NCBI GenBank assembly: GCA_030264375.1
Contig: JASCQW010000098.1
Span: forward strand, 53,820,289 to 53,884,288
DNA length: 64,000 nt
Direction: 5' to 3'
Source: Carcharhinus longimanus
Lineage: Eukaryota
The notes under the pieces were generated by a model that worked only from the letters and a program-made list of their open reading frames with translations, searched no databases and was not told the origin of the DNA. Shown in pieces: positions 45,341 through 54,032 of this stretch; position 1 is the stretch's first letter; each line of letters begins with the position of its first letter. The translations under genes were made by a program, and so were the position numbers.

Positions 45341-48044
45341 TCAAGAATACTTATTTAGCAATTTAGCTTTGGAAAGGAAAACTTTCCCTCTAAATGAACA
45401 ATAATATGTCTGGACTGATTTTAAACCACCCCAAACCTGCAAGGGTACTTGAAATATGAATGATTTGACTTAATACTCCCTTCGTGCTGTAATTGCTCTG
45501 AGTGTCATTTTCAATACATTCAGGTGGCCAATGCTTCCGCCAGAACCAGACAATCACCTCATTGGGATCCTCTGGTGCAATTAGATGTAATGGATCAGAT
45601 GACCTGGCCAGTGTTTAACCCTCTTAATAAACCTTTGCTTGCTTTCAGGCATTCATTTACTGACTGAAAGCACTGTTTAAGGACAAATAGCTGATTGAGA
45701 TAGCGTGCTATTATACATTTCTAATAGATTTTTCAGCTTGGAATTTACTTGTTTCTTGTCACTCTTTTTGCCTTACTTCTGATTGAACTCTTGCAGTTAA
45801 TTATAGATGTTATTTTGCTTCATTGTTTCGAGGAGAAACAGCAGGAGTTAGAGGATCAGCAAAGAGCTGAGCAACCAAGGCAAGCAGTAGGTAGGCCTGT
45901 TAGAAGATAGCAAGTTAGGAGGCTGATAGCCACTACAGGCCATGAGTTACTTTCCTTGATGTGACTGAGGTGTACTGTGTTAGGAGACCCTTCTTCACCT
46001 TGCAGCCTGTATCTGCTCCATGCAGATTCCTGCAACAGCACCTAATGCCTGCAGGCCAAGATGGCCATGCTTTGCTGCTGGCTGTCAAATGGCTGCTGTT
46101 CTTAATGTTTTTGTGTCCAGCTCCATTCAAGCTGTTACAGCAGGGCATCACCCATCCCACCTGGTTAGAAATGCTAGCAAGAAAGCTATTAAACAGATCA
46201 TTATAAGTTAAAGATTTCATTTTGTAAATAATAAACAGCTTGGCAAAAATCTGTTGGCAATAGCTTTGCAAAATGACCAAAACTTGTAGCCAAGATTTTA
46301 ATGGCTGATACAGTCATAACAATACTTGCCAGTTCTTTGTTGATCCGTATGACCTTCTTAAGGCTGTGGAACATTTAACTACTGATACCACTGAAACAGC
46401 GAGTGCTTGGAATGCTGAGTAATGTACGTTCATGTGAACTGAGTGTAAAATTAATAGAATGTTGGACAAGTTAATAATGCAGCTGAGGGATGAAAGAGAG
46501 AGAAACTGTTAACAAGTCTTGGGGCTATTTATCCTCCAATGATCTCCTCAGTTGTAACATGGGACTGAACTTTATGTAGAGTTGCAGTGAGTCCAATTCG
46601 ATGAGGGGGCCACATTTTGTCAGCAATATCAAATCAAGCGACTGCCACTGGGACTGGCATCCTATCAAAGATGGTGACCCACCCTCAAGACCTATCAATC
46701 CAATCAAAGGAAAAGCAGCACAGCCGCACCACCAGGAGTGCACCTAGGTGATGGAAGATCTTTAATGGCCATGCATCCTCAAAGGCAAGTAAGTGGGGGC
46801 ACGGGTACTAATCAGGTAGATCCTGACAAAGGGATGGGAGTCAATGAGGGATGATAACACGATTGCCTTTAGTCATAGCTGCCCAGAGCCTTCCTGGGCT
46901 GAAGAGTGGTCAAAACATCACTCACCCCCTGGAGTCCACTCGTAGGCTACCAAGTCCGAATTGACAGTCTCCTCACTGTGGTGGAAGGTCTCTCACAACT
47001 GCTAAGAGGCTAGCAGAGGTAAGCAGAGACCCTGAGTCTATTTAAGTGACTCAGTTAGGCTCCAGGCTGGTAAGCAGGCTATCTGCCATCATTCCTGCTG
47101 GTGAAAAAGTGATGTTGTGGCAGGAAGATAACGGAGACAATGCCACTACCTTCCTACGCCATTTTGCCAGCCTTTCCATCTCCCAACTCAGCCCCCAGAG
47201 GATTGGTAGTGTTCAGCCCATGAGGTCTCCCACAGCCTTTGGATCAACATGTGTTGTCTGAAGGTTTCATATTCTCTGATAAATGTATAAGTAAAACATT
47301 CTGTGAGTGAGAAATGGGGCTCATTAGCACCCATATTTTGAATGTTATGAGTATTCTCATCAGATCTCAAATGGTGTCAATGGCACATGTGCATACTTTG
47401 GGTAAAATTGTGAAGGACATCCCATTGGTGTAGGCATTAGTGTTCAAAATTAAGGAAGCATGAAGAACAAGGAGATCAAGATGTCACTATGTCATTTTGG
47501 ACTTCAACAATCTATTCAACTTCCTCTTCTCACACAGTTGTACATGCCTTCAACAGCAGGATGGGCTCACCCCACCCCCATCAGAGTTACTTTTTAACAC
47601 ATTCACAATGAGTGCGAATTTCAAGTCTTTATGTCGCTCATCGCCGTGGTTGCCTACCTCTGGCGAGTCCACAGTCAAGAGACCGCTGATCTAAATTGAG
47701 GCCAGATTTATAAGGTCAAATTAAAGGGCAGCTAAGCTATGCTAATACCCCAAGATCTAATTGGACCTAATAAACCGGGTTGTCGATTACCCAGTGCACG
47801 AAACTCCACTGTCAAGAAAGGGAATAAATGATTGGGAGTGAAGGGGCAAGCCAAATTAGGGAAAGCCGAATTAGAAAAAGTAAATATTTAAATTTTAATG
47901 AAATAATAAAAATAAAATTAAAGATAAAAATCAAATTAAAATATTAAAACTAAAGGATTGTATGGGACCACAACATGCGGTGTGACCAGACAATCCAAAC
48001 TACAAATAGGCCAGCTTGCAGCATGCAATACAAACCAGCGAAAT

Positions 48045-48245
48045 GAATCAGTGTCAATTTAGTGTTGCCAATCAACTTAGGGAGCATGTCTTTGGGTTGT
48101 GGGAGGAAACCGGTATATCCTGAGGAAACCCATGCCAACACGAGGAGAATGTGCAAACTCCCACAGACTGTGATCTGAGCCGAAAGTTGGACCCAGGTCA
48201 CTGGGGTTGTGCAGCTACAGTGCTAATCACTGAGCTGTCCATGAC
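48045..48245 (-). mobile_element. V-SINE head plus V-domain embedded in the R2 3' UTR (no tail seen)
   Basis: Reverse AGCTCAGTGATTAGCACTGTAGCTG...CAGTCTGTGGGAGTTTGCACATTCTCCTCGTG...CCGGTTTCCTCCCAC. Confidence 0.8.
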
Positions 48246-51200
48246 ACAGTCCAATGCGGTACACCCATACGGACAAGGAGCACCAAGTGGCAACAGAAAA
48301 GCACACGCGCGCCGCGCCAAGGATTGGTGCAGATGCCGAAGACATCGCACCAACCGGGGGGGCTAGGCAGAAGCCACATGGGCGGAGGAGTACCGGCAGC
48401 ACCCCAACCCCAAGGGCAAACTGCAAAAACACCCCATAGTGTTATGTGCAACACAATGGTGAAGCCCTTCCAACAGCACAGGCATTGCGTGCATGACGTC
48501 CTGAAGCCACCAACGCACAACTGAATGCATGGGCACTCCTTGGTGGTGGCGTCCCCACACCAACCGAGCCAAGGGGGACCGAGATACCTAGGATGGAAAG
48601 GCATGTTATTTTCATGAGAAACAGACAAACAATTCTAATATAAAAGTAAAAAAATGGAGTCCACCATATAAGTTCATATGGTCTCCTAAGGCTTTAAGAG
48701 CTGAATAGTCAACAAGCGCAGAGGTAGAATGTTGATAGTAGAGATGTCTCTCACCTGTCATTGAAGATACCTAATAACTCCAACATTAATGACAAGGTGA
48801 GTCTTGAGATTTGTTGGGCAAATGATTGAAATTTATTAATCCCCAGGAATATCATAAGGCTGTTGTTCTTTTCGAGCCATTTGCCCCGGCACCCATTATA
48901 AATCCAAAGTATCGTATTTCCAGGCCTCCAGTTAACTTCATGATTTCAGGTCCCAGATGGTTGTACTTTTTGCATTTTTCTTCCCACGCCTTTTCTAACC
49001 TGTCAGTTATCTTCAAACCGATGGTCACGTCTACCACCGCAACATGCTGATCCTTACCTCTCTTGAAGATGATATCTGGCTTCCAGAGAGAGCCATCTTT
49101 GGCATTAAGTCGTGCTCTAGGAAGGATGTCCATCCGTATTTTCCAATAAACTTGTGCAGTTGACCCAAGATCTTATTGTGGTGTTTAATCCTGCAATTCT
49201 TCACGAATGGGCAAAAACTAGAAATGTGTCCCAGTGTTTCGATCCCTGCCTCACAGCGTCGGCGGGTTTTACTTGCAAGGGGTTTACCTCTCGTTAGGGT
49301 CACCCTCGTGGGATACAGATTGCATCTTAAAAGTAGGTTATTAATGAACGGATTGGATTTGAGCTGGAATGCAGCTTTAATCCAGCAATTGGATACCTTA
49401 TCATTGTTGTAATAACGGATTCCAACACCTTGGTATTGTAGCCGTCTTCATTTGTCAAATTCCCACTCCCTCCATCCTGCATACATGTTTGGTGGTTTCC
49501 TGGGACCCACCTCCTCCTCTCCAAGTATTGGCATTACCACCCTGATCATATCCATTGTCTCAGTAGTATCATTGTTACCTTCGCCAGCATTGGGCAGAAA
49601 ATCCTCTATTTCCCTCAGGGTGCTGAGAGACCTCAATTCTTGGACGTTGTCTCCAATGTTCTGCTCACAATACTGGAAGGAAGCACAAATGATTTGATCA
49701 GTGGAGGCAGATAATGATTCCCATTTACGAATAACAGCCGATGGAATCTGTATTTCAAGGTTGGGAATCCCCAAGCCTCCATTCCCCACACGGGAATAGA
49801 GGATGCCATCCGTTCTATTGGGGGGAAGGTGTAGGAAATGTTTGACGGCATTCTGGATGATTTGATCCAGTTTGATGAGTGTGTTCTGCGATGCCTCAGA
49901 GAGGATCAAATGAAAGTAGAGTCTCGGGATGACATGGACAGTTAAAATCTCAATGCATTGTCTTGGCCGGAGAGCTGTGGCTTGTAAGCTGGATATCCAG
50001 GCCTTCAATTTTTGCTCCCAAGCACGTTCCTCTACGCCTGCCCATGGGTCTATACAGGCACCCAAGTACTTTTCAGCTTCACCTGGGGGGATATAGGCGA
50101 TTACCTCCTTCCGGTTCTGCCAGTTTTTACAATGATTGTACAGGAAGTTCTTCCGCTTATCAGTAAAATGGAAGCCTTTTGTCTTGTTGATGTTAATAGA
50201 CAAATCTGGGAGATTGCAGAAGGATTGCAAGATCTTCAAGCTGCGTGCCATCCTGGTGTAAGAGTCACTCAAGAGGACAATGTCATCTGCAAAAGCTGGG
50301 GTCGAACAGTTTATTTTTGCTCCGTCTACAGTCATAAAGACACCAGAGTTGGCCTCTTCGGGACTGCAAATCAGCAAATCCATTGCAATATTGAACAGAA
50401 TGGGTGAGAGTGGGTCTCTTTGCTTTACACCCCTCTCTATACTTATTAGAGTGGTCTTGGACTTATCGCCCTCGATCACCATTGTATTGCCAGTGTAGAG
50501 ATCTTGAATGAGATCCACAAAGGCTTGTGGGAGTTTAATATGCTCTAATGCTTTAATAACAAGCTTATTACCAATTGAGTCGAACATCTTTGCCAAATCA
50601 ATAAAGACAACAGCCAGGTCCTTGTGTTTTTTTCAGTACCCTTTATGATGTTTTGCAACACAGTGATGTTCTCGTTGCAACCGGGTGTTGCTGCCAAAAA
50701 CCCCTTCTGTCTTGGGTTAATGTCAACAGTGTCACTCAACCTCTTGGCCATGATCTTTGTAACGAGGCATAGCAACATAGGATCAACAGTATTTGGGCGC
50801 CAGTTGTCAATGTTCTTGAGGCGCCCTTGATCCTCTCATTTGGGGATCAAAATGGTTCGACTCCATTTCATGCAATCTGGGATCATCTTTGATGTCAACC
50901 AGAGGATGAAGAGGCAAGGTATCCGGTTTTCATCCGCCTCATAAATATCACGGATGTCCTTGATTTTCTGACCATCCGGTCTGGGCGCACTGGCCTCTTT
51001 GATTCCCTTAATTGCCAGGGAAACCTCTTCAGCTCCAATTGGCACAATCAATTCCCCATTATCTGTTTTGCCCTTGTATATAGCGAATTTACTGATGTTG
51101 GATTCGTTATTTTTACTGGAGAGTTTCTCTCAAAAACTTTCCTCCTGCTCCATATTGGCAGTGGACATAATACGGCTGCGGGTGCCCCATGATCTGTTGA

Positions 51201-51657
51201 GCAAGTTGATGCCCATTGTTATTGTAGAGCAGTTGGGTAGCTCTGAAAATGGCTTTTCGTTTTGCCCATTGTTTCTTCGCTCCAGTGTTCACATCATTCT
51301 TGGACCTTCTTTTGTCCTTCTTATGCGCACTTACCTTAATGGGACCTTCCTTCTCCTGCCTGGTTCTTGCACCGTTCATTAGGAAGTTGGTGATGCTCTC
51401 CATTAAACCTTTCCCTGGGCACAACCATCAGGGTCTTTCATCGCGTTCAGGAACCTCTTGGCCCGTGTAACCTGATCCTCTACCTCCCTGTGTTTAGGGA
51501 TTAAGGCCGGGAGTTGGCTGACGAAGGCTGTACGCAGGATTGGGTTCATGATGTCTGCCTCATCCGGATCCTATTCTTGTTCAGAGTCCGGGGTTCTTCT
51601 ACAATAGCTGCCAATGCTGCAGCTTGTGCATTATTCTCCAACAACCTGCATTTATCG

Positions 51658-52097
51658 AAGAACAAAGAACAATACAGCTCAGGAAATAGGCCCTTCGGCC
51701 TTCCAAGCCTGCGCCGCTCCTAGGTCCAACTAGACCATTTGTTTGTGTCCCTCCATTCCCAGTCTGTTCATGTGGCTATCCAGGTAAGTCTTAAACAATC
51801 CCAGCGTGTCAGCCTCCACCACCCTGCTTGGCAGTGCATTCCAGGCCCCCACCACCCTCTGTGTAAAATACATCCCTCTGATATCTGANNNNNNNNTCAC
51901 CTTGAACCTGTGACCCCTCGTGATCGTCACCTCCGACCTGGGAAAAAGCTTCCCACTGTTCACCCTATCTATATCCTTCATAATCTTACACACCTCTATT
52001 AGGTCTCCCCTCATTCTCCGTCTTTCCAGGGAGAACAATCCCAGTTTACCCAATACCTCTTCATAGCTAAGACCCTCCATACCAGTCAACATCCTGG
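51658..52097 (-). mobile_element. 5'-truncated CR1 inserted into the R2 Myb domain
   Basis: TRMLTGMEGLSYEE..LGLFSLERRRMRGDLIEV..TRGHRFKV..FTQRVVGAWNALP; (GTTCTTT)n tail. 5-bp TSD TATCG (51653-57 and 52098-102). Excision restores KQISDKCRLL. Confidence 0.92.
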
Positions 52098-52814
52098 TAT
52101 CGGAGATTTGTTTTAGCCTTTTAGTTTTTAAGACCGTGCTGATCTCCTTATTGATGCTCTGGGACCCAGCAAATCTTACTTCTAGTTCTGCGAGGAGTGC
52201 TTCTTCCTCTTCAGACCAGACCATTGGCAACCTTCCCTGTTTGATCAGGGCCAGCAGTGCCTGCTTCAAATATTTGGTATTGTGAAGGACAGGATATCGA
52301 TGTCTTTCGAGCTGGGAGAGTCCACTTTCCGTTGTGAATGCAAGTTCACATGCGCTGCACTGATGTTGCCCGACAGTCGAAGGTAACCTCTCACCTTTAC
52401 ACTTCGGGTAGTGACAAGCGATAGAGTGGTACTCCCCAGATTTACCACATCGTGAGCATTTAGTTTGTATATTTTTGATGTTATGCACTGTCTTAAGGTG
52501 TTTTCTGAACGCTCCAACCATAGGAAGAACGGTATCGCAGGACTTACAGAATAAAGCATTGATAGGATAATGAATGACCACCTCCTTAACCTCAGTCCAG
52601 TCCTGAGATGGTTCAATGCTAACAGTCTCGATGAAGGTATATGTATTATTGGTACCCACATCGCTCGTAATGGCGATGTTTGCCAGAATTCCCGTTCCCG
52701 TATTCTGGGCTTGATAGGCCTTGTTGTAGAAGGTAAGTGTAGTTATTTCTACATCATCATCTGCTGGCTGTGTCGTCCACCCGCATTACCTTCCACTGTC
52801 GGGCAGGGCTAGGA

Positions 52815-53247
52815 GGCATCTCCTGCAACTACCTCAGCTGGAATGGGATTTGAACCCACACTTTTTGTGTTATTCTGAACCATTCATTAGTCCAGCTTCC
52901 CTTGTTCAGAATTATGGAGCATTATTAACACAATCACCATTTGCTGTGCAGATACATGGATTTGGGCCAGTATCTGTGGGAGTTTGCGCATTCTCCCCGT
53001 GCTTGCGTGGGTTTTTCCGGGTGCTCCGGTTTCCTCCCACCCCAAAGACGTGCTCTTAGGCTGATTGGTGTAACAAATTGTCCCTAAACTAGTCTCCCCT
53101 CAATCTGGATTCCGATGTGGAATGCCATAAGCGCAGACAAAGGTCATGGATGGAAGAGGGAACTCACAAAGTTAAAATGGCAGCGCGGGCTCATTGGGCC
53201 GAAGGGCCTGTTTCCCGTGCTGTGTTGTTCTTTGCTCTTTGTTCTTT
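52815..53247 (+). mobile_element. SINE insertion(s) in the R2 N-terminal region: V-SINE with (GTTCTTT)n CR1 tail, preceded by an antisense tRNA-like head fragment
   Basis: V-domain at ~52970-53090 with intact CpGs. Tail GGGCCGAAGGGCCTGTTTCCCGTGCTGTGTTGTTCTTT is nearly identical to 54195-54264. Minus-strand B-box GGTTCAAATCC at ~52846-52857. Confidence 0.75.
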
Positions 53248-53552
53248 GCCCAGGCAGGCTCTTCTACAATAGGTTCATTGTCATCAACTATTGTGGCGGC
53301 TGACTCTTTTGGTCTGGGGCCAGAGTGCACCACCCAATAGTGCCGGTAGCATGTATCCGGTCTCAAGACCGCCTTTCCGTTTGAGTGGAGACAGATCTTG
53401 TCATAGGCTTTGTGTAGCCTAGCTTTTAAATTGTTCCCAGAGAGCGGCTACATACTCGCCTGAGGGGTTGTCGTTAATTTGGGACACAACCCATCCAGAT
53501 TCCTCCTTTTCATGTGGGCTGTTCATTTATTCGGTGATTGTTGATGCCAAAC

Positions 53553-53754
53553 TTTGCAAATCTCTTAGCAAATCACAGATCTCTGGTCTTCACATGATTT
53601 TTTTACAAAGTCGTTTCAAGGTTACAAGCGGGCCCAGCAAGGAGGCACGACGACACAGTGATCTGCAAAAACACGCCAAAACGGTCGCAGCAGTAACTAC
53701 CCAGAGTTGACTCTCCAGTGAGACCCTTCTAAGAGAGTCATAGTTACTTCCACC
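53553..53754 (-). ncRNA. HDV-like self-cleaving ribozyme of the R2 5' end (decayed)
   Basis: Core GCCTCCTTGCTGGGCCCGCT resembles HDV P3/L3/P1. CCCGCT pairs with 28S GGCGGG. GCTAA is J4/2-like. TTTGCAGATC/GATTTGCAAA is a candidate P2. Confidence 0.65.
53730..53754 (-). other. 25-nt 28S rRNA fragment (R2 upstream target sequence)
   Basis: GGTGGAAGTAACTATGACTCTCTTA versus 28S GGCGGGAGTAACTATGACTCTCTTA(AGG): 23/25 identical. Confidence 0.9.
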
Positions 53755-54032
53755 AGAGAGCATCAACTACTTACAAGTTAATTGCTGGTGGATTTTTACT
53801 GGTTATTGCTATAATTCTACAAATATTTGGTGCATTCTGTAGATGTTTCAAGTTGTAGTCAACTGTTACATGTTTTGATGTTTTTCTCTTTTACTCCACA
53901 GGTGCGTCGGTCCACCTTGTTGTTTAACGAGGGGCATACACGCGGTGGGTCATGCGTGGGCTGCTCTTGAAAGTTCGAGAGTAGCCAAGTACTTTGCATC
54001 GTTTGTGTATGCTTAAAACTGGACCAGCAGAT

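Follow-up and report, generated by a model that had tools for sequence, protein, structure and literature searches.

A full-length R2 retrotransposon of lineage A lies outside the ribosomal DNA (rDNA) in the shark Carcharhinus longimanus, on the minus strand of a 64,000-nucleotide (nt) stretch referred to here as the window (G000:C98:53820289-53884288; contig JASCQW010000098.1 of assembly GCA_030264375.1, which comprises 2.68 Gb in 68,774 contigs). The element is one of dozens of dispersed non-rDNA copies that form at least three subfamilies. We propose that these strays are probably off-target reverse transcripts of R2 RNA, leaked from master elements resident in the 28S ribosomal RNA (rRNA) genes.

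The original prediction, made from the letters of the window, had placed a decayed R2 open reading frame (ORF) here, and its landmarks, from the first finger Cys to the stop codon, lie where they had been put (Table 1). A single ORF encoding a reverse transcriptase (RT), a CCHC knuckle and a restriction-like endonuclease (RLE) gives the layout of lineage-A R2. The three CCHH-CCHC-CCHH zinc fingers (ZnFs) and the Myb domain complete it in L036, an intact relative that keeps all of the ligands. The finger formula given earlier therefore holds for the family; the window copy itself has lost both His ligands of the third finger (replaced by Leu and Tyr) and the first Cys of the C-terminal knuckle, now Arg. 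The RT piece finds R2Tg first in the PDB (9nl3/9nl2/9dou, E ~3-4e-64), followed at a distance by 8gh6 (E 2e-32) and LINE-1 (E 1e-11 to 1e-12). R2Tg is also the best PDB match of the N-terminal piece (E 1e-26), and Pfam recognizes RVT_1 in the element (E 8.5e-20). The closest named homologues come from catshark, bamboo shark and houndshark, in agreement with the shark-like genome that had been proposed.

An RT tree of 120 of the 122 sequences, midpoint-rooted and with no identified member of NeSL/Utopia, R4 or Hero, makes the window copy and L036 sisters (support 0.995). This pair is joined first by Scyliorhinus torazame (0.96) and then by Chiloscyllium punctatum (0.998), and the shark group sits inside the vertebrate three-finger R2 group (0.989). 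Under this rooting the placement of the window RT with lineage-A R2 is supported, as judged from the RT sequences; together with the structure matches, the tree bears out the reading of a full-length clade-A element.

The window copy is no longer functional, to judge by its sequence. Aligned with L036 it keeps 859 of 1,316 residues and shows four stops, ten frameshift events and two nested insertions. Its damaged parts include ZnF1, the knuckle and the ribozyme, and the copy is dead.

Its position outside the rDNA, also part of the original prediction, was confirmed from the window and from its 3' side. An Rfam scan of the window returned no family at gathering score, so the window contains no rRNA gene, and the 342 nt of 3' flank have one weak second match genome-wide. 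Contigs from three sequencing runs, which represent three organism codes and three studies, bridge the 3' junction: 47303-47710 in X1 (0 differences; X1 is possibly the assembly's own sample), 47200-47639 in X9 (11 differences in 440) and 47200-47917 in X18 (21 differences in 710, plus eight gaps). In a fourth run, X3, the junction was not bridged under a 31-letter rule. Since the junction is bridged in X1, X9 and X18, the insertion is older than the split of those organisms; the 3' junction is old and is not mis-joined. We considered the joint 47440-53761, present in three runs with a short side of 20 letters, as an empty site or a 3' transduction; neither is supported, as the flank search, with its one weak second match, gave no such paralogue.

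How many relatives the element has was measured with three queries. The finger-Myb region gave 65 genome matches from 93 of 93 candidates, the 3' part at least 68 matched pieces (40 of 5,155 candidates scored), and an exact 3'-end pattern 88 matches against 0 for its control, 82 of them distinct and examined. L036 (2794-6762, on G000:C137) holds an uninterrupted lineage-A ORF of 1,323 codons, in which a young sequence or lineage may have been collapsed. With dozens of copies, an intact ORF in the same assembly and published elasmobranch R2 elements, the rarity and the tool value implied for the window copy were overstated.

The history of these copies was read from 22 distinct ones over codons 880-1200. 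Private changes, found in a single copy, fall evenly on codon positions 1/2/3 (160/154/155), whereas those common to at least three copies concentrate at the third (86/65/268); L036 alone looks recently selected (2/2/13). This codon pattern indicates that the source lineages evolved under purifying selection and that private changes are neutral, acquired after dispersal. The 22 copies form three or more groups with nearest neighbours 79-92% identical, and this divergence suggests that the dispersed copies founded no bursts, as far as the gap-rich assembly can show. Young dispersed copies without rDNA association, the hallmark of non-specific R2NS elements, were not found, although assembly collapse could hide young copies. 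A second, more distant R2-like family is also dispersed (L264 at G000:C130:31577890-31581060, L265 and L066; 30-57% to L036 by piece). L066 has a different end type, followed by a 49-nt 28S tail.

Sixteen of the 18 distinct 5' ends of the family, the window copy included, are preceded by unrelated DNA and begin with 28S sequence at -24 to -29 of the R2 target site. In the remaining two the 28S continues, in L036 as far as a gap (-86) and in L031 to the edge of the contig (-79). In the window element the first ~26 nt are decayed 28S sequence, which was overlooked in the first reading. It should be noted that the leader pattern search is blind to starts inside -28, and that several 5' ends were found independently by protein or DNA search. 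The region behind the leader is a putative ribozyme, whose P1/P2/P3/P1.1 topology we take to be of the hepatitis delta virus (HDV) type. Its putative pairs are 90% paired, against 28-50% when slid; 26-30 of 500 shuffles reach this value, which makes the covariation weak, and a plain minimum free energy fold of the window 5' end gives no significant signal (z 0.48). In the window copy a ~21-nt deletion over P4/J4-2 has removed the presumed catalytic C. R2 ribozymes cleave most often at -28, the position also predicted for an avian lineage-A R2 (PMC11331408, excerpt). Five 5'-truncated copies (L053, L064, L082, L088 and L162) lie between upstream 28S, which reaches -48 to -150, and a 28S tail, an arrangement that requires templates inserted in 28S. 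Having lost the ribozyme, they would derive from rDNA co-transcripts copied past a truncated insertion. One R2 5' end, L040 (G000:C43:104280357-104280415), bears three tandem leaders of 28S -28 to -9.

At the other end, 96 3' ends were classed: 53 belong to a chimeric repeat described below, nine run through 12-39 nt of 28S into unrelated DNA and 34 have no 28S. The 43 non-chimeric ends in the assembly thus divide into 9 with short 28S tails and 34 with non-28S flanks. Three further 28S-tailed ends outside that census (33-85 nt) bring their total to 12. For base composition we used 32 non-rDNA junctions (the 34, minus a tandem R2-R2 junction and three rows of one host subfamily, plus two later copies), with two junction registers moved 2 nt by eye. 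TA comes first in 26 of 32 and TAG in 17 of 32, for backgrounds of 5.5% and 1.2%. Target-site duplications are absent from all seven copies with both ends, in which the longest common word within 30 nt of the ends is 3-5 nt. Off-targets of an engineered avian R2 arise at a rate of ~0.1-1% and likewise have little in common beyond bases that pair with the primer immediately after the nick (PMC11371274, excerpt).

Short 28S pieces are dispersed as well. In the assembly, two 20-mers from the 28S target site have 27 and 29 occurrences, and control 20-mers ~120 nt downstream and 150 nt upstream have 8 and 10, the second with five control hits. Each of ten dispersed R2-free fragments (L056, L060, L061, L063, L070, L074 and L077-L080) begins 9-20 nt before the R2 nick, and seven of them end at +24 to +31, as R2 tails do. 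In three more R2-free pieces (L168, L169 and L171) the nick position carries a small deletion.

Co-transcription of R2 with rRNA and an RNA start set by a ribozyme in the 28S are established for other R2 elements, and the leakage that we favour would proceed along the same lines. An R2-inserted rDNA unit would be co-transcribed with rRNA; the HDV-like ribozyme would cut at 28S -28, leaving an RNA headed by 28 nt of rRNA that, as the 28S tails suggest, would extend briefly into downstream 28S. The R2 protein would occasionally prime at a non-rDNA site, in most cases one that, like the start of the true target, reads TA(G) after the junction. The 5' end of the cDNA would be joined without target-site duplication, and the new copy, presumably silent for want of an rRNA promoter, would decay neutrally. 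Masters in the rDNA are presumed: some 5' junctions lie in 28S that continues to a gap or to the edge of a contig, and 12 3' junctions have 12-85 nt of 28S, but no copy was found inside a long rDNA contig, and the window copy itself is not in 28S. On-target copies would be lost through rDNA turnover and collapsed in the assembly.

Several observations weigh against this account. More than 85 nt of 28S after the family 3' end was found on no contig, among 27 matches to the target motif, and the only rDNA contig with long flanks has an uninserted site. L036 has 28S on its 5' side up to the gap at -86 but a non-rDNA 3' flank, and the 3' junction of the window copy starts AGT, not TAG. The number of strays is large. 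The 28S leader doubles as the 5' strand of ribozyme P1 and could partly be kept by a dispersed master. Finally, repeated landings in one CR1-like sequence mean that the off-target choice is non-random.

These landings bear on the strongest alternative, a lineage of relaxed specificity, whose protein would nick degenerate TA(G) sites, among them a preferred CR1-like second target, far more often than other R2 proteins do, and which may be kept in part by dispersed masters. In nine of the 34 non-28S 3' junctions the insertion point is one codon stretch (NYRPVSL) in the RT of a long interspersed element (LINE), presumably CR1; the motif has 1,847 exact copies. Four of the nine lie in one host subfamily (89-97% flank identity). 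The other pairs of flanks are only 58-75% alike, which makes at least six independent landings. The 5' junctions of three full-length copies, and one truncated copy with host on both sides, also map just upstream of the motif, at least 43 junctions in three or more subfamilies lie outside the rDNA, and the intact ORF of L036 is followed by non-rDNA in the assembly, all of which speaks for relaxed specificity. On the other hand, the hotspot resembles the upstream 28S site weakly, no dispersed pair is more than 92% identical and private changes are neutral. The 5' side of L036 is 28S running into a gap, and the sequence may be a collapsed young one. Present-day locations also mislead, as R2 loss rates differ between rDNA and the rest of the genome (PMC13580325, a 2026 review, excerpt). 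We consider relaxed specificity unlikely. Of the two origins left open by the original prediction, the fossil off-target insertion fits better than the relaxed lineage, given the rDNA-derived ends and the neutral decay.

The likeness of the hotspot to 28S was examined in 29 empty CR1-like sites (of 30 fetched). Their likeness to upstream 28S lies in the top 21% (median), or in the top 6% with five downstream bases included. The site ranks first in few copies, with strong 28S likeness in one host subfamily only. We rejected the idea that the hotspot mimics the upstream 28S site, which is strong in one example and weak across the 29. A second spot in the CR1-like RT, where the 3' flank starts TAGCAG, was struck in L120 and L134 (and forms the 5' flank of L131), and one spot in a Gypsy-like repeat was struck twice (L037 and L048); here too we take the Gypsy-like and CR1-like labels as presumptive.

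The transfer of R2-inserted rDNA pieces as DNA, by double-strand-break capture or recombination, is highly improbable as the general origin. It would account for copies set between two stretches of 28S (reaching -150 and +85) and for the dispersed R2-free 28S fragments across the target site. However, 16 of 18 full-length copies start sharply where the ribozyme cuts, and 34 of 43 3' ends are exact and without 28S; these are RNA ends and not breaks at random in DNA. For full-length copies this route is largely refuted; it could hold for a few doubly 28S-flanked fragments. Least likely is an assembly mis-join that gave an rDNA element false flanks: the assembly has many gaps, one of them ~310 nt upstream of the 5' end, and no bridging of the 5' junction was found among the contig pieces listed for the runs, but the 3' junction is bridged in three runs and a decayed copy with nested repeats is unlike an rDNA resident.

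Leakage from 28S-resident masters remains our preferred explanation, and R2 sequence may also have spread by other means. In a chimeric repeat, found at 112 places (three for the control; examples L083-L152), the R2 3' end is joined to a CR1-type tail. The R2 part reaches ~640 nt and takes in the last stretch of the ORF; most spanning copies share a ~140-nt deletion, and 24 copies differ by a mean of 6.0% from the column majority. The 5' ends are staggered, and L123 runs into upstream CR1-like coding sequence. We rejected a short interspersed element (SINE) with a fixed tRNA-like start, as the 5' ends range from -34 to ~-650, one at the head and one into CR1 coding sequence. The simplest reading is that one truncated R2 insertion in the 3' untranslated region (UTR) of an active CR1 was then amplified by CR1. 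A ~1.4-kb non-coding unit (L261:1002-2370) has a start at 28S -28, a ribozyme-like 5' end and an R2-like 3' end before TAGCC. Its longest sense frame is 67 codons and its four full-length copies are 65-85% alike; by its sequence it looks like a vertebrate R2 short internally deleted element (SIDE). The unit also occurs in L062, L263 and L262, with 5' ends in L157, L158 and L178. It is conceivable, though we hold it only tentatively, that the CR1-like codon stretch is a real second target of shark lineage-A R2, that a single landing in a CR1 3' UTR allowed an R2 3' end to spread with CR1 to more than 100 copies and that the strays record the natural 3' ends of the template RNA.

Shark lineage-A R2 elements and stray R2 copies, the latter in Drosophila, are already known kinds. 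Extra-rDNA copies were reportedly described in Bombyx by Xiong, Burke and Eickbush in 1988. In Drosophila, extra-rDNA copies of R2 and R1 are dead and are not the source of rDNA copies, and R1 copies outside 28S begin with upstream 28S and can have as much as 14 nt of downstream 28S (PMC2718515, excerpt). The Drosophila R2 strays show 1-2% divergence and are frequently incomplete, whereas the shark strays number dozens, are old, are in many cases full length and belong to several subfamilies. R2NS-1_SMed and R2NS-1_CSi resemble the shark family in having many non-rDNA-flanked copies, but they are flatworm elements of lineage C/D, >98% identical to their consensus, whereas the shark family is of lineage A, old and with rDNA-derived ends. 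In the part of the source used, non-specific R2 is reported only in flatworms, and the 3' junction of an angel-shark R2 by polymerase chain reaction (PMC5035012). The Drosophila SIDEs and hybrid SIDEs of R2 (PMC3414825, excerpt) resemble in their logic the ~1.4-kb unit and the R2/CR1-tail chimera; the shark forms differ in occurring in a vertebrate, dispersed outside the rDNA and with a CR1-like LINE as hybrid partner. R2Tg/TaGu (9dou, 9nl3 and 9nl2), the best PDB matches, share with the window family a predicted ribozyme cut at -28 (PMC11331408, excerpt). Avian homologues are ~40% identical over RT-RLE, and the window family has a long 3' UTR with a SINE-like segment.

Lineage-A R2 elements with ORFs and UTRs are catalogued in sharks and rays (PMC13188248 Table S2), from which we compared 11 of the 15 Chondrichthyes rows over the first 400 characters of each cell. 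The elasmobranch rows (R2-1_STig, R2-1_SCa, R2-1_CCar, R2-1_CMax, R2-1_SAc, R2-1_HSa and R2-1_CPu) have the same arrangement of three ZnFs, Myb, RT, knuckle and RLE as the window family, and by eye their N-terminal motifs and 5' UTR starts are similar. Zebra shark, dogfish, stingray and other relatives are entered there with upstream 28S flanks. By eye, non-rDNA in the R2-1_SCa row is followed by only ~120 nt of upstream 28S and R2-1_CCar is without upstream flank, and some catalogued shark entries may, on their sequences, be strays too. That work defines R2 by the 28S site, and its main text, in the portion used, reports non-rDNA copies only for sponges. A literature search that left most subscription journals, Repbase and Dfam outside its coverage found nothing on shark R2 copies scattered outside the rDNA, on a hotspot in CR1 or on a chimera of R2 with CR1. 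Five protein records (P0005, P0071, P0001, P0004 and P0017), judged from names alone, hint at strays in other vertebrates: their R2 ORFs are annotated within host gene models, as for turtle PDE3B (a 156-Mb record) and a cuckoo enolase-family gene, or lie on long shark scaffolds.

Table 1. Features of the R2 element and its 3' flank (window positions).
Feature	Position	Strand	Basis or remark
Full-length R2 element	53754-47592	-	
Decayed 28S leader, ~-28 to -3 of R2 target site; 5' strand of ribozyme P1	53729..53754	-	alignment
HDV-like ribozyme region (putative), damaged	53600..53754	-	alignment of 9 family 5' ends
Decayed single R2 ORF	48751..53500	-	clear homology from ~53496; 4 stops, ~10 frameshifts; stop at 48753-48751
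Nested SINE-like insertion (presumed) with CR1-type tail, opposite orientation	52781..53249	+	boundaries approximate
Three N-terminal zinc fingers (CCHH, CCHC, third without both His)	52294..52548	-	alignments; first finger Cys 52548
Myb-like domain	52099..52218	-	alignment to R2Tg; Trp 52218
Nested 3' fragment of CR1-like LINE (presumed), same orientation as R2	51656..52097	-	absent in L038, L039
RT and thumb	49451..51130	-	Pfam RVT_1, structure matches; AFADD at 50296-50282
C-terminal zinc knuckle, first Cys to Arg	49211..49264	-	alignment to L036
Restriction-like endonuclease KPD..D..K, frameshifted	48751..49082	-	motifs, alignment; KPD 49082-49074
3' UTR	47592..48750	-	last ~60 nt = family-conserved 3' end
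Unique non-rDNA 3' flank, no target-site duplication	47250..47591	.	genome search, contig bridging

Both nested insertions have very high read depth. The one at 52781..53249, which we take to be SINE-like with a CR1-type tail, is absent in subfamily mates, and joints skipping approximately these positions were seen in three of four runs; the one at 51656..52097 is presumably CR1-like. Within the 3' UTR, the tRNA-like stretch 48237-48055, presumably related to tRNA/V-SINEs, is common to different R2 subfamilies and was therefore captured in an active lineage; no tRNA gene was called anywhere in the window. Elsewhere in the window, a minus-strand frame of 178 codons at 1390-1926 resembles in its motifs what we take to be an RT fragment of a long terminal repeat retrotransposon.

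The single copy is ordinary, and its value lies in the genome-wide set of strays to which it belongs. This set is a natural germline record of the misses of a vertebrate lineage-A R2 and bears on the off-targets of R2-based gene insertion. Shark R2 entries drawn from assemblies should be used with caution, as they may be ectopic fossils. The strays show where the native template RNA starts and stops in vivo, and its 3' ends, at 0 or ~30 nt into 28S, would, if true, be information that on-target insertions cannot give. The chimera further suggests that R2 sequence can exit its rDNA niche by hitch-hiking on another LINE.

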